A stretch of 23,938 bases of DNA from Fidelibacterota bacterium (GTDB lineage: Bacteria > Fidelibacterota > UBA2242): assembly GCA_049975265.1 (NCBI GenBank), contig JBNGDF010000013.1, forward strand, positions 43,056 to 66,993, given 5' to 3'. The notes beneath the pieces were generated by a model, which saw only the letters and a program-made list of their open reading frames with translations, had not been told where the DNA came from and did no database searches. Position numbers and translations under genes: made by a program. Positions 4,769 through 23,938 of this stretch are shown in pieces (within the stretch, counting starts at the first letter, position 1; each line of letters opens with the position of its first letter).

Positions 4769-6076
4769 TTAGTCTTTCCAGACCGCCACTGCTTTTCTGA
4801 ACTGTTCAGTAGTTAACTCTTCCCGTGAAAAACGCTCCACGTCGGATTTGTTCACTTTAAGGTACAGAGTCCCGGGCGTTTCTGTCCAGAAGCGGTGACT
4901 GAGATTCACCGTCACCAGGATCGTTTCATCCTTTTTCACGCTGCGCAAGGTGGCACCATACTGACCGAGCACATCAATAATTTGTGCGGTGATCGCATCC
5001 ATCAGCGAGTCGATTTTAACATCCGGTTCCGTCACCTGCACATCAAAATCGACATCCACCGTGTCGTCATCACCGTGTACGAAAATTCGATTTTCTCTGC
5101 CTCCCGGCAATGCCGGCGCAGCCGGCGGAACGGGTAACTCAGCCTCTTCTAATTCACGGATACGCTCTTCATGTCTGTGAACATCCGTTTCAAACCAGCG
5201 CAGCTTTTTCTCGAGGTCACCGGCTTTCTTGATGATAATCTTTTCCAGGTGATCGTATCCCGTCACCGGCGTTAAGAAGATGACACCATAGTCCTCCAGA
5301 TACATGGCGCGGGTTTTCCCCGTCCAATGAATCCAGTGGTTTTCCGTATCCGCTCCGATCACACGGTCCAGAATCCGGCTGAAAATCTCCACATCGCGGT
5401 TGGCTTCGGTTTCGTAAAGACGTTCGATCTTGATCCTGGCTTTGAGCTTGGCTTCATTCATCTTACCAAGCCGGTAATCATTCAGGTCCCGCACCAGCGC
5501 ACAGGCACGCAACTGCTCCGGTACTTTCAGCTCCTCTGTGTTTTCGATTTTAAATCCCTTTGAGTTGCGGATATTCACACAGATCCGCTCGCGCTCGGGA
5601 AGAGATTTGACAGTACTGGCATAATCCCGAAAAAATTCGATGATCAGTTCCTCTGTTTTTTGCAGGGATTTTTCAATTTCCGCTTTTTCGTCCACCGTCG
5701 CCGAGTCTGTCTTTTTATCCTTGTCGAGAGTTACAATAATCTTTTCCTCTGAATCGGTATCGATCTTAACACGGGGCAGGGTCCGAATGGAACGGGTGAT
5801 CACGTCAGAGAGGCTCAGCAGTCCGTTGCTTTGCAGATCAAACATCAGTCCGAAGTCCTCCAGATAGAGACCGTGCACCTGATCTCCACCGCTAAATAGA
5901 AAGGGGCTTTCCTGAATGATCAACTGATCGAGAACCCCTTCCAGGACTTTAATGTCCTGCTTAATTTCCTCCTTCTGATCCGCAGCGGGCGTCCCGGAAA
6001 GCCCGCTGGAAAGCAACATTAAAAAGAGGATGAAAACCATCACCGGGATAACCAGCAAATCATTTAACTTCTTCAT
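4769..6076 (-). CDS. Exported hypothetical protein with two tandem copies of one domain; third gene of the ECF operon
   Basis: Likely start is ATG 6076 after AAGGAG (MKKLNDLLVIPVMVFILFLMLL.., signal or anchor), not the track start at 6160. Internal repeat GLYLEDFGLMF / AMYLEDYGVIF. Confidence 0.8.
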   Translation of the reverse strand: MKKLNDLLVIPVMVFILFLMLLSSGLSGTPAADQKEEIKQDIKVLEGVLDQLIIQESPFLFSGGDQVHGLYLEDFGLMFDLQSNGLLSLSDVITRSIRTLPRVKIDTDSEEKIIVTLDKDKKTDSATVDEKAEIEKSLQKTEELIIEFFRDYASTVKSLPERERICVNIRNSKGFKIENTEELKVPEQLRACALVRDLNDYRLGKMNEAKLKARIKIERLYETEANRDVEIFSRILDRVIGADTENHWIHWTGKTRAMYLEDYGVIFLTPVTGYDHLEKIIIKKAGDLEKKLRWFETDVHRHEERIRELEEAELPVPPAAPALPGGRENRIFVHGDDDTVDVDFDVQVTEPDVKIDSLMDAITAQIIDVLGQYGATLRSVKKDETILVTVNLSHRFWTETPGTLYLKVNKSDVERFSREELTTEQFRKAVAVWKD

Positions 6077-6131
6077 GTTTGGACTCCTTTTCTTGCATTG
6101 ACAATGTGCTCCTGTCCCCCGGATTAATTGA

Positions 6132-6794
6132 TTATCTTCCCCCACTCTGGGCACTGACATACTCGATCAATGTCCCCAACGTCCGGTCGGTCTGTTCCAG
6201 CCGCTGCGCGGTTCCGTATTGCAGCTGATCCATTACCGTTCCCACCATCCGCAGATCTTCCTCGCGCTGTCGTTCCAGCTCTTCGTAGAATTTGTCCAGC
6301 ATAACCGCCGTATCAATCTTACTGCGTTTGTCATACTCCTCAATAATGGCTGAAACAATCTGATAATTTTCCCGACGCAGCTGCTCCAGATCGGATTTCG
6401 TCACGAAATCCGCCGGATCAATGCGCTTGTGATTGAACAGTCCGGTTTCAAAGGCAAATTCCCCATCGGAAAAACGGATGCTGGTATTGAACAACGCCAA
6501 AAGTAACAGCAGCGCCGCTGTCGCTACTCCCAGCCGTCCCGCCAGAGTCCAGGATTTCAGTTGTCGGATCAATTCCGTAAACCGCCCCGTGGGTTGATTC
6601 ACAAACGTCAGATTTACATGAGGCTCCTGATCTTCCCACTGCCCCAATACCTCTGTCGTAGCCCGCAGTGCGGCATATTTCCGGCGACAAGCCGGACAGC
6701 TTTGGAGATGCATATCGAGAACTTCCTGATCCCCGGCGGAGATCTCATCATAAAGCGCGTCCATCATCAACAGACGAATATCATCACATTTCAT
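6132..6794 (-). CDS. Zinc-binding (zf-HC2/ZAS) transmembrane anti-sigma factor
   Basis: N-terminal C..IR..M..ALY and HLQSCPAC (HxxxCxxC), one TM helix (LGVATAALLLLLALF); overlaps the sigma gene by 11 nt. Confidence 0.88.
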   Translation of the reverse strand: MKCDDIRLLMMDALYDEISAGDQEVLDMHLQSCPACRRKYAALRATTEVLGQWEDQEPHVNLTFVNQPTGRFTELIRQLKSWTLAGRLGVATAALLLLLALFNTSIRFSDGEFAFETGLFNHKRIDPADFVTKSDLEQLRRENYQIVSAIIEEYDKRSKIDTAVMLDKFYEELERQREEDLRMVGTVMDQLQYGTAQRLEQTDRTLGTLIEYVSAQSGGR

Positions 6795-7386
6795 AGCTCA
6801 AATCCTCCCGGTCAACACCCCATTTCTGTAAAACCGAATGGAGGGCGTCCAGACCGTAATACATGCGTGATTTAATTGTATTTATCGGTGTTTTTAATAC
6901 ATCGGCGATTTCTGTGAATTTCATTCCGTGATACTGTTTCATAATCACCACAACCCGCTGCTCTTCCGGAATGGCGAGCAGCGCCTTTTGCAGCACGTCC
7001 GACAAATTTTCGTGATGTGCCAGTCTGGTGGTGTCCTGCTCCTCGTCTGCAATAATAATCTGCGGGGCGCCATTATCGCAATCATTGAAATCAGGGCTCT
7101 CACTCAGTGAGTAGGTAACAGATTTCCTCTTTTTCAATTCATCCCGGCAGAGATTGAGGGCAATCCGGTAAAGCCATGCTGAAAAACAGCGGCGGTCTTG
7201 CAGCTTTCCCAGCGATTTATACGCCCGGATAAAACACTGCTGCATTACATCCTTCGCCTGCTCACTGTCGCCGAGATACCTCAAAATAAAATTGTAGATC
7301 GGCTTTTCCCAGCGCCAGACCAGCGTATTGAAGGCGGCGGTGTTGCCAGCGGTAAATTCACGGATCAGGGATTCATCATTCATCAC
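6784..7386 (-). CDS. ECF RNA polymerase sigma factor (SigW/RpoE-like)
   Basis: DESLI, AFNTLV, AKDVMQQCFIRAY, FSAWLYRIALNLCRD, EIADVLKTPINTIKSRMYYG. Start is GTG 7386 or ATG 7383. Confidence 0.93.
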   Translation of the reverse strand: MMNDESLIREFTAGNTAAFNTLVWRWEKPIYNFILRYLGDSEQAKDVMQQCFIRAYKSLGKLQDRRCFSAWLYRIALNLCRDELKKRKSVTYSLSESPDFNDCDNGAPQIIIADEEQDTTRLAHHENLSDVLQKALLAIPEEQRVVVIMKQYHGMKFTEIADVLKTPINTIKSRMYYGLDALHSVLQKWGVDREDLSYEM

Positions 7387-10032: not shown

Positions 10033-10392
10033 ATGCCACCGAAAATAGTCATCGTTGACGATGATCGGCAAATTTGCGAGTTATTTTCAGAATTCTTTCA
10101 GCAGAACGGGTTTACCGTCTATACGGCATTCTCAGCCGCAGATGCTCTGAAAATCATCCGGGAACGGGACCCGGATATTGTGCTTAGCGATATCATCATG
10201 CCCGGCGAGGATGGCTTCAGCCTTTATGAAAAGGTGCAGCTATTCAATCCCGATCTGCCCTTTGTTTTTATCACCGGTTATGAACATGACAAAAAAATTC
10301 TGGCACGTCTGAAAGAGACCGGGCGAAAGTGGATCGCCAAGCCGGTGACCCTGGAAGAATTGATGAGTCTGGTGAACAGCGAACTGAAATAA
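10033..10392 (+). CDS. Stand-alone (CheY-like) response regulator receiver
   Basis: IVDDD, SDIIMPGEDG, FITGY, AKP; no output domain. Confidence 0.92.
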   Translation: MPPKIVIVDDDRQICELFSEFFQQNGFTVYTAFSAADALKIIRERDPDIVLSDIIMPGEDGFSLYEKVQLFNPDLPFVFITGYEHDKKILARLKETGRKWIAKPVTLEELMSLVNSELK

Positions 10393-15157: not shown

Positions 15158-15222
15158 TCTCATTTTCCTGGTTCCAAAATTGGATGCCATAGTCAAACCT
15201 GGGAATGAGAGAAGCGTCTCTC
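15158..15222. terminator. Inverted repeats between convergent genes (REP-like and/or terminator)
   Basis: TCTCATTTTCCTGGTT (15158-15173) pairs imperfectly with AACCTGGGAATGAGA (15196-15210); small hairpin GAGAGA-agcg-TCTCTC followed by a T-run. Confidence 0.5.
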
Positions 15223-15887
15223 TATTTTTTGAGCATATTATAAATTGTCTGCTCTAAAAACCGAAATCGGTTTTCGATATGGTATTGTCGTTTTTCCTTT
15301 TCCAGAACGGAACCCAGTTTGGATGTATAGTCTGTTTTCCGAAAATGTTGAATAATATCTAAAATCTCTTTCAATACTTTTTCATCATCAGGCAAGGCAA
15401 CTGCTTTTCTGGCAAGAAATTCAAGGTCGTAGGCGTCGCGGATTTCCTTTCGGTCAAGCAATGCTTCGGCTTTCATCTCCGCCATAAGAGGCAGGGCGAT
15501 TGCATTGACCATGACCTGTATCGTGCTGAATGGCGACCAGGCGATCTCCTTTTTCATGTTTTCAATGTACCTGGTTTTGTTTATCTCAATCTTCAGTTTA
15601 CGGGGATAGTGATTTGACTGAATTTCCACCAGAAACGTACGGTGTTTATCAGCCTGATCGGTCAGGGTAAATTTTTTCGACAGGTTTTCAATGATTTTAT
15701 CAAACAGCCCGGACATTTCGCCGGGTTTATATAAAAAGAAATCCAGATCAGCGGAATACCGGTCAAGACCGTGACATAGGCGTAGCATTGTCCCGCCGCC
15801 AAAGATCAGGCTCGGCAGTACCCGGCTGGAGTTCAGCAGCTCCAGGACTTCCATTTCGAACTGCTCATGCTTGTGAAAGATATTCAT
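15222..15887 (-). CDS. AbiEii/AbiGii family nucleotidyltransferase toxin (type IV TA)
   Basis: FGGGTML...GLDRYSADLDF, LKIEIN, K..ALLDR..IRDAYDL. Start is likely ATG 15887 after GGAG, overlapping the antitoxin gene. Confidence 0.88.
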   Translation of the reverse strand: MNIFHKHEQFEMEVLELLNSSRVLPSLIFGGGTMLRLCHGLDRYSADLDFFLYKPGEMSGLFDKIIENLSKKFTLTDQADKHRTFLVEIQSNHYPRKLKIEINKTRYIENMKKEIAWSPFSTIQVMVNAIALPLMAEMKAEALLDRKEIRDAYDLEFLARKAVALPDDEKVLKEILDIIQHFRKTDYTSKLGSVLEKEKRQYHIENRFRFLEQTIYNMLKK

Positions 15888-16455
15888 ACCTTCTCCACCA
15901 TTGCTTAGTCTTTTGCGGGAAAAGATCCAGCCAGGTCCCAAGCTTCTTCCGGTCCATGCGTTTCCACTCTACCGCTGAAAAATCAAATGAATAACGGTTT
16001 AATGATACCAGGTAAATAATATCCGCCATTGCTTTTTCAGGCTCGGCGATAAATAGTCCATTCTTCAGTGTAAAGCCTTTGTAATAATCGGATTTTATCA
16101 GGTGGAAAGAGAAGACCGAAGATCCAAGCATGTATTCAATGCTTCTTTTTTGGGCTATTGATTCAATCCTGCTCCGATACATCTGAGTGGAGAGCTCATA
16201 GTAATCAACTGCGCTCGATAAAGAAATATAGGATGGCACCTGGATTCGATTGGCGATTCGCAGGCGGTCTTCCATGCCAAGGTATTGCCACCTTTCTTTA
16301 ATGATATAAAGATTGTTCCGGATTCGTAAAATTTTACCGGATTTATAGTAACGACTGCACAGGACCCGTGCCGAACTTTGATTAATACCCAGCTTGCGGG
16401 CAAGCTCGTCCACCGTGAAAACAATATCGGGCAACATGTCAGAGTCAATTTTCAT
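15865..16455 (-). CDS. AbiEi-type antitoxin / wHTH transcriptional regulator (type IV TA)
   Basis: N-terminal wHTH (FTVDELARKLG...G.ILRIRNNLY), PSYISL.SA..YY, AEPEKAMAD; directly upstream of AbiEii. Confidence 0.88.
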   Translation of the reverse strand: MKIDSDMLPDIVFTVDELARKLGINQSSARVLCSRYYKSGKILRIRNNLYIIKERWQYLGMEDRLRIANRIQVPSYISLSSAVDYYELSTQMYRSRIESIAQKRSIEYMLGSSVFSFHLIKSDYYKGFTLKNGLFIAEPEKAMADIIYLVSLNRYSFDFSAVEWKRMDRKKLGTWLDLFPQKTKQWWRRYEYLSQA

Positions 16456-18783: not shown

Positions 18784-19704
18784 ATGAGCAGGAAACCAAC
18801 TCCCCAAAAACCAATAAGCCGTCTTGAGATGGAAAGAGATATGGCTGATCTGACCAAACATCTGGAATCGCAAAGTTTCGCATCCATCGAAGAGGCTAAC
18901 GCCTATCTCCAAACATTTGTTGGGAAAAAAATCGGGACTGGCACAAAGAAAAAAAAGACCAACAAGGACAAAGCCTTTGATCTGATTATTGAAGCCGAAG
19001 ATGCATCTCTATATCGGGGAACCAAACTGGCGCACAAAGCCCTTGAACTCGATCCCGAATGCGTTGACGCCTACAATTATCTGGCTGATCATGCCGACAG
19101 TCTGGAAAATGCCATGCAACTTTTTCAAAAAGGCGTGACTATCGGCAGACAAGCGCTTGGCGAGGACTATTTCGCCGAAAATACCGGCTGTTTCTGGGGA
19201 CTCCATGAAACCCGTCCGTATATGCGGGCAAAAGAAGGCTATGCCCGGACATTGGCGATGAGTGAACGTTATAAGGAAGCCATTGGGGAATACCGGGCAA
19301 TGCTGGTGCTGAATCCCACGGATAACCAGGGCATTCGCTTTCTGCTGGCGCCGCTTCTGATCCGACAGAATTTTTTACATGAATATGACACCCTTTTTAA
19401 AGCCTATAAGGACGACGCAAGCACTTCCTGGCTCTTTAACCGGACGCTTTACCTTTATCTGCGGTATGGCGGAGTCGTCCGGACAGTTGCCATGCTGCGC
19501 AAGGCGATTGACTCAAACCCGCATGTCATCGAGCTGCTGATTGGTGAAAAAGATTTGCCTGACACTCCTCCGGAATACTATCGCATGGGTAGTTTTGAAG
19601 AGGCAGTCATCTATTTCGAGGAATCCGCGGCAGCCTGGTACTCCCACGAAAAAGCCCTTTACTGGCTGGCGGACTACTGGACGCGACATTTGAAAATGGA
19701 CTGA
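18784..19704 (+). CDS. TPR-containing hypothetical protein (ST7-like helical repeat family)
   Basis: AHKALELDPECVDAY, FWGLHETRPYMRA, LNPTDNQGIRF, KAIDSNPHV; AAGGA RBS. Confidence 0.75.
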   Translation: MSRKPTPQKPISRLEMERDMADLTKHLESQSFASIEEANAYLQTFVGKKIGTGTKKKKTNKDKAFDLIIEAEDASLYRGTKLAHKALELDPECVDAYNYLADHADSLENAMQLFQKGVTIGRQALGEDYFAENTGCFWGLHETRPYMRAKEGYARTLAMSERYKEAIGEYRAMLVLNPTDNQGIRFLLAPLLIRQNFLHEYDTLFKAYKDDASTSWLFNRTLYLYLRYGGVVRTVAMLRKAIDSNPHVIELLIGEKDLPDTPPEYYRMGSFEEAVIYFEESAAAWYSHEKALYWLADYWTRHLKMD

Positions 19705-19727: not shown

Positions 19728-20765
19728 TCAGTTTTCACCAAACTTTTCCAGAACACCATCGAACCAGACGATGAGGTCCTTGAGGGCGAAGATGAGGGCG
19801 TTGACCGTGTCGGTCGTCGGCTGAAAACCGGGCGGTGGATGATGTGCACCGAAATCGCTTGAAATTTCGTAAATATTATAGCAGAAATCTTTGATAATCG
19901 AATTCGTATCAAACTGATAATGATTCGTTCTCGTCTCACTGTTATATTGCACCAACCAATTGATGACACTACGGGCTTTGATATTTCTGACATTATCCCA
20001 GCAATCATCTGGAGCGTTTAATTTCTGAGCCGTGACTCTCATAATATTTTCCAGGAGAACTCTTATCGCTCCGAGATTTGTTTGAACATAATCTTTATTG
20101 TTTCTGTTTACCAGAATATACCAAAAACTGTCGCTTACGTTCTCATCAATTCTCTGTTTTAAAATCTCCAGGTACTTCACATTTTCGTGACGAATCAGAA
20201 AAGTCTGCTGATTCTCGATAATGTTCTGAAGGCGGGTGATGTCATTACTATTGGCTTTCTCGATAAAATTTTCCCTGCCAAATTGGTTAAACTCAATATG
20301 ATTCTTCAGATCCTCGGCACCCTTGATTTCACTGTCAAATGAATAGGCTGTTAAAAAATAAAAGCACATTGCTACACTAATCTTTTGGTAAATCAATTTG
20401 TGCAGAAAATAATCGCCTTCCCGCTCGAAAAACTTATCATACTGTGCTTCCGAAAATTTTTGATCAATTGTTCTGACTTCTGCGAAGTCATATTCGGTTA
20501 ACGACAGATTCCGGTCAATGATGAATAATGCATATTTGTTGGCGTTCGTTACGATCTCTTTTAAAGCATCGGGGAAACGGTATTCAATTCTGAAAAGGTC
20601 TTTACGCTCCATAATCGTCTTGATCTGTTCGGGCGTCGCGCCATATTCATCATTTTCCAGGGCTTTTAGTTCATCTTTCTGATTTTTACTCAGGAATTTC
20701 CCAAAGAGCCGGAGCAAGCGGGGAATATTCTTTTCGAGTTCGTCTTCAACAAATAAAATCCTCAT
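19728..20765 (-). CDS. Atypical response regulator: expanded receiver plus a helical C-terminal domain of unknown (HEPN/DUF4145-like?) function
   Basis: Receiver signature VEDE (7-9), IID84RNL, LT139AY and IEK170, with insertions. The C-terminus has R..LE (235-239) and SDFGAH308 and no HTH. ATGA overlap with the kinase gene. Confidence 0.75.
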   Translation of the reverse strand: MRILFVEDELEKNIPRLLRLFGKFLSKNQKDELKALENDEYGATPEQIKTIMERKDLFRIEYRFPDALKEIVTNANKYALFIIDRNLSLTEYDFAEVRTIDQKFSEAQYDKFFEREGDYFLHKLIYQKISVAMCFYFLTAYSFDSEIKGAEDLKNHIEFNQFGRENFIEKANSNDITRLQNIIENQQTFLIRHENVKYLEILKQRIDENVSDSFWYILVNRNNKDYVQTNLGAIRVLLENIMRVTAQKLNAPDDCWDNVRNIKARSVINWLVQYNSETRTNHYQFDTNSIIKDFCYNIYEISSDFGAHHPPPGFQPTTDTVNALIFALKDLIVWFDGVLEKFGEN

Positions 20766-22033
20766 ACCTTACTCCCCTCCCAGAAATTTGGAATTTTAAA
20801 TTTGACGGAATAGATATTTTTCGCATTCTTGATTTCCAGCGCAGTGTTCAGCATCTCGGAAAAGTTTTTCAGAATGACATGTCCCATGCCAGTGGTTTTG
20901 ACTTTTACACGTGGTTTAAACTTATTTTCGACCAATAAGGTTACATACTTTTTATAACCGGAGAATTTTATCCTGATGAAGCGTTTTTCAGGCTCAACGA
21001 AAGCGGAATATTTAACCGCATTCAGGATCATTTCCTGGATGATGGTCAGGAGTTTGACTGCCGAACCCCTGTCATTGCCGATTGCCAGATTTCCAACATC
21101 TTTCAGATCAATGTCAATTTTTAATAAATGCTTTTCAATAAAGGCGGTAATCTCATTTATGCTTTCCTTATCCGTAATCCTTGCCCAGTCACTTTTAGCC
21201 AGATTGAAAGATTCTCTGTCGGAGAAATATTTCTTTGAGAACGTCGAGAAATACTTCGTATCGAACATATTGGCAACCGAATTCTGTAAAGCAATAGTGA
21301 CCATGTCAGACAGGGTTTGCGAGTCGCGCCTCTGATTGTTATGAGCATCGTAGAAAAAATCATTAGCACTGCCTTTCAGGGAATAATTCATCGCATTGGC
21401 TAATTCACGCACAATATTGGTACCCCGCAAGGCAGCATCAATCGTGGACTGGAGATACTCTTTAGCTTCCTTGAGATTTTCAAGAGGGTCTACGACAGTG
21501 CCGATGATATTCTTGATTGAATGTGACAAGTCAGCGATGACCTTTTTACGCTCTTCGAGACGGGCAAGGAGCTCTTTAAAGTGCATTTCAGATTCTACTA
21601 TATCTTGCATTTCCCAAGCTAAAGGATAACCCATACAAAGTTCAAAATCAATAGTACTTGCTTCGGAAAAAAGTTCTTTAGCAATATCAAATTGCTTATT
21701 TTCAACCAATATATTTTTTAAAGATTCAAGTTTTTTAAAATCCTCTTCTGAATTAATATCGGAAACAATTTTTGATAGACAATCACGGGCTTGTGAAAAT
21801 TTACCTAACTTAATATATATCTCTCCAAGCAGAAAATTGGCATCATATGAAATCGGATCGTTTGATAGAAATAATTTTAAGTGATTGATTGCTGAAGAGT
21901 ATTTTTTTAGATTGTATTCTATTAGGCCTTGGTAATAATTAAGTAAATTCGGATTATTATTAATATCTTCTTCAATATCTGCGAAAAAACTTTCAGCCGT
22001 TGTTTGTGCTGATTTTTTTAGTTCATCTGTCAT
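20762..22033 (-). CDS. Soluble TPR-sensor histidine kinase-like protein (GHKL ATPase)
   Basis: Two TPR-like repeats (YYQGLIEY..KKYSSAI; ANFLLGEIY..LGKFSQA), H-box LSH171SIKN, N-box EMILNAVKY, G2-like TTGMG. No DxGxG (VEN instead) and no TM helix. Confidence 0.8.
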   Translation of the reverse strand: MTDELKKSAQTTAESFFADIEEDINNNPNLLNYYQGLIEYNLKKYSSAINHLKLFLSNDPISYDANFLLGEIYIKLGKFSQARDCLSKIVSDINSEEDFKKLESLKNILVENKQFDIAKELFSEASTIDFELCMGYPLAWEMQDIVESEMHFKELLARLEERKKVIADLSHSIKNIIGTVVDPLENLKEAKEYLQSTIDAALRGTNIVRELANAMNYSLKGSANDFFYDAHNNQRRDSQTLSDMVTIALQNSVANMFDTKYFSTFSKKYFSDRESFNLAKSDWARITDKESINEITAFIEKHLLKIDIDLKDVGNLAIGNDRGSAVKLLTIIQEMILNAVKYSAFVEPEKRFIRIKFSGYKKYVTLLVENKFKPRVKVKTTGMGHVILKNFSEMLNTALEIKNAKNIYSVKFKIPNFWEGSKV

Positions 22034-22057
22034 AGATTACCTAACATTGAATTATTT

Positions 22058-22075
22058 AAGATTTTCGAAAATCTT
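22058..22075. promoter_or_regulatory. Perfect 18-bp palindrome in the kinase leader
   Basis: AAGATTTTC|GAAAATCTT, 24 nt upstream of the start codon. Confidence 0.5.
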
Positions 22076-22135
22076 TACATCTCTTTTTTACCAGTTATCA
22101 TGTTTATCACTTTCACGAATATAATATGCACAAAT

Positions 22136-22164
22136 ATAATACCAAGAATCAATGAGTTTGTCAA
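22136..22164 (-). promoter_or_regulatory. Near-consensus sigma70 promoter for the kinase-receiver cassette
   Basis: TTGACA (22164-22159), 17 nt, TATTAT (22141-22136) with TGn extended -10. Confidence 0.7.
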
Positions 22165-22366
22165 ATATGATTTTTGTCGTCGGGTGGCTGTATTGTTCAA
22201 TTGCTATTTGGAATGATCACAGGCTCGACCTTCGTAAAATCATTTATTCCCGAGCGTAAGGATTTTTACGAATTACTGGTGTGTCAATCTTTATACAACC
22301 ATGCAAATTGAAACCCCGCCTTTAAAAATACAAGGTTGTATTTAAAACTGTGATAATGATTTTTTA

Positions 22367-22395
22367 TTGCGGTAATACCGGTAATACCGTATATT
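22367..22395 (+). promoter_or_regulatory. TA promoter with tandem palindromic operator
   Basis: TTGCGG-17-TATATT, overlapped by GGTAATACC twice (22371-22379, 22380-22388); each copy is a GGTA-N-TACC palindrome. Confidence 0.7.
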
Positions 22396-22419
22396 ACCAA
22401 CAGGATTTTTGGAGTTAAT

Positions 22420-22635
22420 ATGAAACCGGTAACCTTTAAAATTGATGAAGAACTTATTAGTGAGATTGACGCTCTGGCGCAGGAAGTCCACGAGAACCGC
22501 AGTTCGCTGATCAAGAAAGCCATCACATTCTATCTTGACAATTACGATGGCGTCATCGCCAAAGCCCGGCAGGATGATCCGGACAGCGTTATGATCGCAC
22601 ATGAAGATGTGCTGAAAGAATATGGGCTCCTGTAA
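22420..22635 (+). CDS. Ribbon-helix-helix (CopG-like) antitoxin
   Basis: MKPVTFKIDEEL..EID.LA....NRSSLIKKAI, acidic C-terminus (HEDVLKE), GGAG RBS, overlaps the toxin gene. Confidence 0.88.
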   Translation: MKPVTFKIDEELISEIDALAQEVHENRSSLIKKAITFYLDNYDGVIAKARQDDPDSVMIAHEDVLKEYGLL

Positions 22636-22882
22636 AATTCAGTGGGATTCACGGGCGCTAAAGGAGCTGCGTAAACTTCCGCAGGAAACCGCTGTTCGTA
22701 TTTTAAAAGCCGTTAGCGGTCTAACCGATGATCCTTTGTCCGGGCTACCTCTTAAAGGTGCATTTCAGGATTTTCGTAAATTGCGCGTTGGTGAATATCG
22801 CGTCATCTATTCATTTCTGAAAGATGTTGCTATAATTCAAATTTTGCGGGTAGCGTACCGGCAGGAAGTCTACCGTTCGTAA
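22622..22882 (+). CDS. relE: RelE/ParE family type II toxin
   Basis: ALKELRKL, PLKG, RKLRVGEYRVIY, VAYRQEVY. Confidence 0.88.
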   Translation: MGSCKIQWDSRALKELRKLPQETAVRILKAVSGLTDDPLSGLPLKGAFQDFRKLRVGEYRVIYSFLKDVAIIQILRVAYRQEVYRS

Positions 22883-23016: not shown

Positions 23017-23036
23017 AAAACCGTTTCAACGGTTTT
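23017..23036. terminator. Short palindrome directly after the sigma-54 activator stop (terminator or REP-like)
   Basis: AAAACCGTT-TC-AACGGTTTT. Confidence 0.45.
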
Positions 23037-23938
23037 TATTCCTTGTTAAGGTCCAGTTTTCTCAGTCGGGCGCGGAAAGTGGCGGGCTCTAAGCCCAGCA
23101 ACTGCGCCGCGGCAGCCGCATTGCCGTTGGTTTGGCGCAAAGCCGCCTGATAGTATTGGGGAATGATGTCATTATCGAGATCAACGCCTTCGGGTGGAAT
23201 TGAGATAGCGGTAGATTTATCAGTCAGTTCGATAATATGCAGATGTTCCGCAGTGATTTCATCACCCGGATAGACAAAGGCGGCGGCGAGCGCGCTTTTC
23301 AGTTGGCGGATGTTACCCGACCAATGGTAATTCCGAATTTTATCGAGCGCGGATTCTGTCAGGTATTTCCGTTTGTCCTGGAATTGATTGAGCGCTTTTA
23401 CCAGACTTTGTGCGACTAAAATTTTGTCGTTCCCGCGTTCACGCAAAGGCGGCAGAAAAATTTCAGTTTGAACCAAGCGGTAGAAAAGGTCTTCGCGAAA
23501 CTGACCGTCCTTGATCATTTGGCGCAGATTTTTGTTGGAAGCCGAGATCACCCGGACATTGATCTTTTCCTCTTTGCCGCCGACAACCTGGATTGTACCG
23601 TAATCCAGAAAACGGAGCAATTTGACCTGCATCTCCAGCGGCAGATCACCGATTTCATCAAGAAATATGCTACCCTGATCAGCGAGTTTGAATTTGCCCT
23701 CTTTATCTGCGATTGCACCGGTAAAACTGCCTCTTTTATGCCCGAAGAACTCACTTTCAAACAGCTGCGGACTGATAGCGCCGCAATTGACTTTAACCAG
23801 GGGTTTTTCACGTCGTCCGCTCGTGTAGTGTAACGCTTCAGCGACTAATTCCTTCCCGGTGCCGCTTTCGCCGCTGATGAAAACCGGAAGTCCAGCATCC
23901 GCCAGCAGGCGGATTTTTTCTTTGACCGATTGAATCGC
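23036..23938 (-). CDS. Sigma-54-dependent enhancer-binding protein (AAA+ plus Fis-type HTH), 5' end outside the window
   Basis: Frame is open to the window edge: GESGTGKE, VNCGA, ESEFFGH.RGSFTGA, FLDEIGD, QVKLLR, FREDLFYRL, PPLRER, WSGNIRQL, GN...AA.LLGL. Confidence 0.93.
   Translation of the reverse strand, partial: AIQSVKEKIRLLADAGLPVFISGESGTGKELVAEALHYTSGRREKPLVKVNCGAISPQLFESEFFGHKRGSFTGAIADKEGKFKLADQGSIFLDEIGDLPLEMQVKLLRFLDYGTIQVVGGKEEKINVRVISASNKNLRQMIKDGQFREDLFYRLVQTEIFLPPLRERGNDKILVAQSLVKALNQFQDKRKYLTESALDKIRNYHWSGNIRQLKSALAAAFVYPGDEITAEHLHIIELTDKSTAISIPPEGVDLDNDIIPQYYQAALRQTNGNAAAAAQLLGLEPATFRARLRKLDLNKE

Follow-up and report, generated by a model that had tools for sequence, protein, structure and literature searches.

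A TPR histidine kinase, a receiver-HEPN protein and a CARF-sigma54 activator: a likely new type of phosphorylation-triggered anti-phage defence

What an AT-rich pair of genes, a histidine kinase and a receiver protein with an unfamiliar output domain, might do for its host is the question raised by a 23,938-nucleotide stretch of a Fidelibacterota genome (contig JBNGDF010000013.1; hereafter, the window). The soluble tetratricopeptide repeat (TPR) kinase (423 amino acids [aa]; positions 20762 to 22033, minus strand) and the receiver-HEPN protein (345 aa; 19728 to 20765, minus strand) overlap through an ATGA, in agreement with the translational coupling claimed in the initial annotation. Their low GC contents (36% and 40%, respectively, versus 48% in the window and 48.7% in the genome) also agree with it, and both genes are single-copy in the source genome. 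Our analysis indicates that the pair is conserved, real and not previously described in the literature searched, and that it likely represents a new type of phosphorylation-triggered anti-phage defence, as judged from sequence. The reading that we prefer, with a confidence slightly better than even, is that the pair and an overlooked third gene make up a conserved three-part module, in which a HEPN RNase would be licensed by CARF and triggered by the kinase. The CARF-sigma54 activator would induce expression of the pair, the kinase would phosphorylate D84 of the receiver, and this phosphorylation would switch on the predicted HEPN ribonuclease, with abortive infection or dormancy as the outcome.

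First, we studied the receiver-HEPN protein. Neither the protein nor 84 aligned members of its family had a meaningful match in Pfam, NCBIfam or PADLOC (one PADLOC row for the protein, E 0.093), a sequence-profile search of the PDB returned only noise, and in the ESM Atlas, residues 185 to 345 reached two unnamed clusters, both below 0.9. A word-index search found 202 relatives (120 listed), and an exhaustive phmmer search found 195 cluster representatives (150 listed); in databases, they are named “hypothetical” at most. The AlphaFold model had a pLDDT of 94 (96 for the HEPN domain folded alone). In this model, residues 1 to 190 form a receiver fold (Z of ca. 9 to 9.7 to many receivers) that carries two large helical insertions and in which D8, D84, T139 and K170 are present, while residues 204 to 341 form a predicted HEPN fold, with the four helices and the insert between helices 2 and 3 that are typical of the superfamily. 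The best match to the latter was AF0298 (2hsb; Z 12.1, rmsd 2.6 over 119 residues). The C-terminal domain alone gave a Z of 11.8, and HEPN-superfamily chains, including HepT, RnlA, LsoA and Csm6, dominated the 20 rows with Z of at least 8. Foldseek was uninformative for the full-length model and placed HEPN proteins at all of ranks 1 to 7 (E 0.12 to 1.3) for the C-terminal domain. Weighing against a catalytic HEPN output, the Z values of 11.8 to 12.1 are below the caution line of ca. 13 for helical bundles, the Foldseek E-values are not significant, and the top fold matches include HEPN domains considered non-catalytic (sacsin and MtlR-like). Roquin, also among the fold matches, is presumably another such HEPN domain. 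Given that Z is under the caution line, the fold call leans on the consistency of the matches and on a sequence link to DUF4145, in that a hidden Markov model (HMM) of the C-terminal domain, built without the related protein P0148, recovered the DUF4145 domain of P0148 (E 1.4e-5). The fold model and this link bear out the earlier claim of a HEPN/DUF4145-like output without a helix-turn-helix (HTH) domain.

Conservation was evaluated in 219 homologues with a minimum length of 290 aa, after exclusion of seven sequences whose C terminus was different or degenerate. The residues singled out in the initial annotation were all confirmed (H171 and N-box E334/N338 in the kinase; D84, T139, K170, R235-x3-E239 and S303-D-F-G-A-H308 in its partner). 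The phosphorylation residues were nearly fixed (D84, 219/219; D8, 216/219; T/S139, 218/219; K170, 214/219), and R235 (214/219) and H308 (213/219) were the two most conserved columns of the C-terminal domain, above the core hydrophobic residues; S303 was found in 183/219. Catalytic HEPN domains place a His after helix 3 and an acidic residue in helix 2 (PMC3710099), and the latter is present here as E/D239 (188/219). The canonical Rx4-6H motif is missing from the window protein, which has S-x4-H, and an Arg five residues before the His was detected in only 4/219 homologues. Thus, 214 sequences had R235 without the motif Arg, four had Rx4H without R235, one had neither, and none had both. This mutual exclusivity is suggestive only, because the four Rx4H sequences are distant from the main clade. 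They scored E 0.34 to 770 against the C-terminal HMM, three of them are close kin, and they may be separate HEPN fusions, which weighs against our reading of the site. HEPN families with the His and without the motif Arg, such as c2405 and Parep1/8, are known (PMC3710099). The statement that the Arg is not evident held for the motif position, now a Ser, but the near-invariant R235 of helix 2 is probably the missing Arg; the alignment is suggestive of such a stand-in role.

The protein was also predicted to form a homodimer, with contacts made by helices 3 and 4 of the HEPN domain (score 0.65 versus 0.00 for the best control; runs agreed 100%, with pLDDT of at least 87), by a score mark that 20/30 solved pairs and 1/23 single chains reached, although the prediction may stem from likeness to solved HEPN dimers. 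Against a catalytic site shared between subunits, the model leaves H308 outside the interface and sets helix 3 antiparallel (contacts 297-297 and 304-289), and no composite site was seen. This hydrophobic helix 3/4 packing without H308, together with a Z of <13 for a four-helix bundle and the absent motif Arg, would suit a HEPN-shaped dimerisation or protein-binding module that lacks nucleic-acid activity, the pair regulating some other partner. We consider this highly improbable, since R235 and H308 are the top-conserved residues and occupy HEPN active-site positions, on helix 2 and at the helix-3 end/loop (PMC3710099), and since the domain has a sequence link to DUF4145. As a separate observation, L055:9409-10275 and L100:7249-9434 each encode a receiver of classical length that ends in the same type of S-x4-H HEPN domain (C-terminal HMM, E 1e-15 and 1e-22; homologous loci, genomes and proteins carry the prefixes L, G and P, respectively). 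The former precedes AbiE and McrBC-like genes and has no upstream kinase, while the latter comes after a kinase-like gene; neither was included in the coupling counts below.

In the kinase, Pfam TPR matches covered residues ca. 35 to 102, followed by weak matches to HisKA (E 0.015) and GHKL HATPase_c_5 (E 0.003). Across 29 kinase catalytic cores, H171, E334, N338, N370 and G384 were invariant. The H-box His, the N-box Asn, the G2 glycines (G382-x-G384) and an Asp-to-Asn change in the G1 box give an HPK10/AgrC-like catalytic pattern, a likeness at the level of motifs. DxGxG is indeed absent, as reported initially, but its position is taken by the invariant N370, and G2 is retained. Since kinase activity is on record for AgrC, which carries this Asp-to-Asn substitution too (PMC10482373), we rejected the idea that the lack of DxGxG makes this a dead kinase. 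The predicted absence of a transmembrane (TM) helix was confirmed (19-residue hydropathy peak of 1.28), and the peak reached 1.8 or more in 7/84 longer homologues, so that most, perhaps not all, kinases of the family would be soluble. The core of these kinases is fixed, and the variation in their length (423 to 1311 aa) is in the N-terminal TPR region.

Next, we analyzed how strictly the two genes travel together. The clade kinase was directly upstream of the receiver in 36/37 loci (the exception is L039), counting the window and all loci with at least 300 nucleotides upstream and omitting six with 156 nucleotides or fewer, duplicates and L055. The −4 ATGA overlap was found in 14/26 loci measured. 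In a sample of 401 genomes from the phylum of the window, all six kinase matches abutted a receiver-HEPN match. The presence of the system was patchy, with 12/401, 3/401 and 33/232 genomes in three phylum samples, the last being Cloacimonadota; a match in G138 (E 3e-4), located in a gas-vesicle-like cluster, was dropped as spurious. In G077, a genome of the same genus that is 79 to 87% identical across the region, the activator, the kinase and all but ca. 30 codons of the receiver are gone. Cultured, non-pathogenic carriers include Desulfatirhabdium butyrativorans (receiver, WP_028323220.1) and Desulfonema magnum (kinase, WP_207680783.1). Searches of the IMG/VR viral contigs, the INPHARED phages and the PLSDB plasmids yielded no relatives. 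Two kinase/receiver pairs stand in tandem in L054 and L004.

Not all receivers have a kinase, which weighs against our reading. Five receiver genes had no adjacent kinase (L039 and L115 to L118), and in the four genomes of L115 to L118, which are incomplete metagenome-assembled genomes (MAGs), no clade kinase was found. These four belong to the Cloacimonadota set, in which 20 of the 33 matching genomes, those on longer contigs, were fetched (three repeat earlier loci); the kinase was present in 16/20, and the four orphan receivers had intact motifs. The orphans also bear on the opposite polarity, in which the kinase would keep a HEPN toxin off by phosphorylating D84 until this phosphorylation is lost, for instance through a drop in ATP or a block of the kinase during infection. 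Such a guard would need no buffer receiver and would fit the ATGA coupling, and the G1 Asn of AgrC is said to tie kinase activity to the cellular energy level (PMC10482373). However, the L115 to L118 receivers persist without a kinase in these incomplete MAGs with D84, R235 and H308 intact, which fits a harmless unphosphorylated state, and the one in L116 is directly behind an intact activator. For these reasons, we regard the guard polarity as very unlikely and retain phosphorylation as the switch that would turn the HEPN domain on.

The overlooked third gene encodes a CARF-AAA+-HTH sigma54 activator of the RtcR/PspF2 type (23036 to 23938, minus strand). Its AAA+ and HTH regions are within the window (PADLOC RtcR_PspF2, 328 bits; Pfam Sigma54_activat and HTH_8), while the CARF N terminus falls outside the window, on the far side of an assembly gap of 100 N. 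The upstream gene therefore has the full architecture of CARF, sigma54 AAA+ and Fis-type HTH, and the source genome contains rpoN. A CARF activator was present in 17/20 loci with at least 4.5 kb upstream (including one contig-edge fragment and one downstream, convergent activator) and absent in L005, L015 and L039. Among Cloacimonadota, it was found in 14/17 loci, omitting three cut by contig ends. The activator-bearing loci span Desulfobacterota, Cloacimonadota, a spirochaete MAG and the window's own family, but many are kin, and therefore, the counts are not independent events. The activator clade itself was found in 21/401 genomes of the window's phylum. Elsewhere, its members head a type III-A CRISPR locus (L096), a type I restriction-modification (RM) system (L094) and sister kinase/receiver-HEPN pairs (L093, L099 and the second pair of L054); one is followed by housekeeping genes (L097), and several stop at contig edges. 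The CARF regulator likely senses broken RNA.

We also examined the region upstream of the kinase, scoring it against the −24/−12 consensus of sigma54 promoters. A predicted sigma54 site is located at 22129 to 22144 (minus strand), with a conserved −24 GG and a −12 GT that is GC in L033, L053 and L054. It overlaps the −10 hexamer of a sigma70-like TTGACA-17-TATTAT sequence (11/12; 22136 to 22164, minus strand), the near-consensus promoter proposed in the initial annotation. That sequence is present and was the best of 17 matches (9.1 expected in shuffles), but its −35 hexamer is not conserved in relatives. Approximately 90 bp upstream of the −24 box is a palindrome pair of the CGTAAA-N4-TTTACG type (22233 to 22270; one copy at 22255 to 22270 and a weaker one at 22233 to 22248), a predicted enhancer bound by the CARF activator. 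The aligned upstream regions of the window and its close relatives have such a palindrome pair in common, with a TGG(C/T)A box ca. 90 bp after it (7/8; L052 has an inserted gene). Further copies of the palindrome, either in front of the kinase or immediately behind the activator, were found in L004, L005, L016, L032 to L034, L051, L053, L054, L059, L089, L090 and L094, against a background of 10 matches at one mismatch or fewer in the 2.86-Mb genome. Near-consensus −24/−12 boxes (11 to 12 of 12) follow the activator in L008, L017, L045 and L112, and weaker ones were detected in L013, L052, L053, L109, L111, L113 and L114; the other loci had none. Although the GT instead of GC at the window's −12 and the several loci without a sigma54 box argue against it, the kinase promoter is probably of the sigma54 type with an enhancer rather than sigma70, because the palindromes and the −24 box are conserved and TTGACA is not.

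Some variation around the activator deserves mention. Four Cloacimonadota loci have CARF-coiled coil-HTH regulators without an AAA+ domain (L102:4093-4944, L104:4358-5074, L107:6374-7105 and L009:5519-6244), in genomes that retain rpoN; the three tested had no good sigma54 box. These proteins may have changed from sigma54 activators into simple regulators that sense a ligand. The sister system behind the same CARF activator combines a TPR kinase (H-box of the QYSHTLAN type, G1 Asn) with a receiver-HEPN protein of 360 to 520 aa that has a canonical RNW(S/T)SH (L093:3844-7883, L099:4951-8615, L054:6654-9329 and L089:6456-8108), without a Pfam match. In L096 (1548-12501), the activator is directly 5′ of the type III-A CRISPR-Cas operon, the Cas10 of which was confirmed by Pfam.

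The long receiver is also found with other outputs. Among the 150 listed phmmer matches, seven matched only over the receiver and had swapped architectures: C termini with Schlafen AlbA_2 (P0147), DUF4145 (P0148) or a PtuA-like ABC ATPase (P0215), which is a Septu-like effector, an EAD8 insert (P0197), an N-terminal ParA-like ATPase (P0153) and two unclassified domains (P0146 and P0216).

The genomic surroundings gave mixed signals. Neighbours of homologous loci included type I RM systems (L004, L008 and L013), WYL (L017), Cap4-nuclease/STAND and ImmA-like genes (L052), toxin-antitoxin pairs and transposases, in a raw listing annotated from 103 and 50 chosen proteins. Against a defence role, flanks were ordinary in L009, L016, L034, L045, L053 and L059, and housekeeping-like by translation in most of the 20 Cloacimonadota loci. 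These flanks would suit a stress-signalling module, in which a CARF-induced two-component HEPN output binds or trims specific RNAs post-transcriptionally without stopping growth. So would the missing Rx4-6H, as HEPN domains that lack it can bind RNA while being catalytically inactive (PMC3710099), and the precedent of RtcR itself, which governs RNA repair, not defence (PMC7790460). Set against this are the patchy presence, the local loss in a close relative, the tandem variable copies, the wide range of kinase lengths around a fixed core, the Schlafen and Septu-like effector swaps and the placement of the activator clade ahead of CRISPR and RM loci. On balance, we find a pure stress-signalling role rather unlikely and keep to a CARF-licensed RNase that would act in abortive infection or dormancy.

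In order to put this module into perspective, we compared it with known systems. In Csm6 and Csx1, CARF and HEPN are on one chain, gated by cyclic oligoadenylate. The module shares with them CARF sensing and a HEPN output, Csm6 structures being among the fold matches, but here, CARF and HEPN are encoded by separate genes that would be joined by transcription and a phosphorelay. Detocs (bioRxiv 10.1101/2023.01.24.525353) is the closest in logic: a TPR sensor kinase signals to a receiver that carries an effector domain without DNA-binding function, and its members swap effectors. Accordingly, the window has the TPR plus histidine kinase layout of DtcA (TPR, H-box and GHKL; architecture only) and a receiver-effector fusion with an intact phospho-acceptor (D84 and K170, conserved as above). 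However, Detocs detection needs all three genes, including the stand-alone buffer receiver DtcB, and no stand-alone receiver was found between or beside the kinase/receiver pair in the window or in the paired loci. The sole lone receiver of the window (10033 to 10392) is 9 kb away and is retained in G077, which lacks the system. The effectors named in the main text of that source are PNP, REase, TOPRIM, TM and hydrolase domains rather than a HEPN fold, and the word HEPN is absent from it. The receivers also differ (ca. 190 aa with D84 versus ca. 140 aa with D58 in Detocs), as do the G1 Asn of the kinase and the attached CARF-sigma54 activator and enhancer. PADLOC and NCBIfam gave no Detocs match for the pair, with the inclusion of Detocs models in those sets not established. 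In comparison by architecture, then, the system works like Detocs yet falls outside it, because the DtcB buffer of the three-gene definition is absent. The earlier proposal of a two-gene Detocs-like variant was right about the logic and the missing buffer but missed that there is usually a third gene and that the system is no Detocs member.

Other precedents share single elements. RtcR-like activators are described with CARF-AAA+-HTH at the 5′ end of defence operons (Makarova 2014, PMC4012209; CoCoNuTs, PMC11090510), but the cargo named for them is RM or McrBC-type CoCoNuT, not a TPR kinase with a receiver-HEPN protein. DUF4145-like HEPN domains (Anantharaman 2013, PMC3710099) have the same four helices, helix-2 R-x3-E and His after helix 3, unlike the window protein in having Rx4-6H instead of S-x4-H; the accessible passages of that survey do not include a receiver-HEPN fusion behind a kinase, their lone “receiver” referring to a TM domain. 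Ambrosia (bioRxiv 10.1101/2025.09.30.679545) has a two-component module within a validated anti-phage operon, but the role proposed for its winged-HTH receiver is transcriptional control of the genes for a methylase and an HNH nuclease, and it has neither HEPN nor CARF. DefensePredictor (PMC13092281) presents an untested system for which the figure legend names TPR, HATPase and REC along with further domains. The kinase/receiver-HEPN/CARF unit is not described in the parts available of PMC8195603, PMC7159879 and bioRxiv 2026.10.19.760177, nor did it appear in full-text literature searches, beyond which comparative surveys may list such fusions.

A HEPN/cyclic-phosphate feedback loop has been proposed for CoCoNuTs (PMC11090510), and a comparable, self-amplifying three-tier immune circuit is a tentative extension of our reading. 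Broken RNA sensed by the CARF-sigma54 activator would license expression, the cytoplasmic TPR kinase would be a second, independent trigger, and a HEPN RNase set free by phosphorylation, with an active site rebuilt from the helix-2 Arg and S-x4-H, would yield RNA products that re-activate CARF. Transcriptional licensing would then stand in place of the Detocs buffer protein, and the receiver would act as a socket into which effectors of the HEPN, Schlafen or ABC-ATPase kind can be plugged. If the three-part module operates as proposed, RNases would join the outputs fired directly by a two-component phosphorelay, and an AND-gate of RNA damage and kinase signal would be an alternative to the Detocs buffer against autoimmunity. 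The RtcR_PspF2 CARF activators, the targets of which have so far only been inferred from neighbourhoods, would gain a concrete regulon and, in the palindromes, a candidate binding site, and the family is a test case for the use of a helix-2 Arg by HEPN domains that lack the motif Arg.

Finally, we considered the other genes around the pair. The neighbours named in the initial annotation are where it placed them: a ribbon-helix-helix (RHH) antitoxin with a RelE/ParE toxin (22420 to 22882, plus strand), between activator and kinase, and AbiEi/AbiEii (15222 to 16455), 3.3 kb off. They are neighbours of the pair at this locus, and many homologous loci have housekeeping flanks. RelBE is missing from most homologous loci. 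We rejected both as parts of the system, because the syntenic site in G077 lacks AbiE and keeps RelBE without the system; RelBE is thus a passenger. Direct repeats of the GGTAATACC type at 22370 to 22398, directly 5′ of the RHH antitoxin and also present in L033, are probably its operator. A gene for a 306-aa TPR protein (18784 to 19704, plus strand) converges on the receiver gene, has a 44% identical paralogue on contig C20 and is missing at the syntenic G077 site; it was rejected as a component, as it recurs in one other genome (L027) among the fetched loci. Further away, the window contains a gene for an ECF sigma factor (6132 to 7386, minus strand, together with the zf-HC2 anti-sigma gene that comes after it) and then an unannotated 463-aa open reading frame (4769 to 6160). 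Past the window, G000:C13:67207-72192 (L060:9208-14192) carries, after the CARF activator and on the other strand, an RNase_H_2/TPR gene, a DEAD-box helicase and a PADLOC PDC-S11-like gene; G077 has the same three genes, followed by a type II RM system. In Verrucomicrobiota, L015:4840-13846 has a prokaryotic Argonaute-like gene (PADLOC E 1e-11) before the kinase and an ABC ATPase after the receiver, with no CARF gene.

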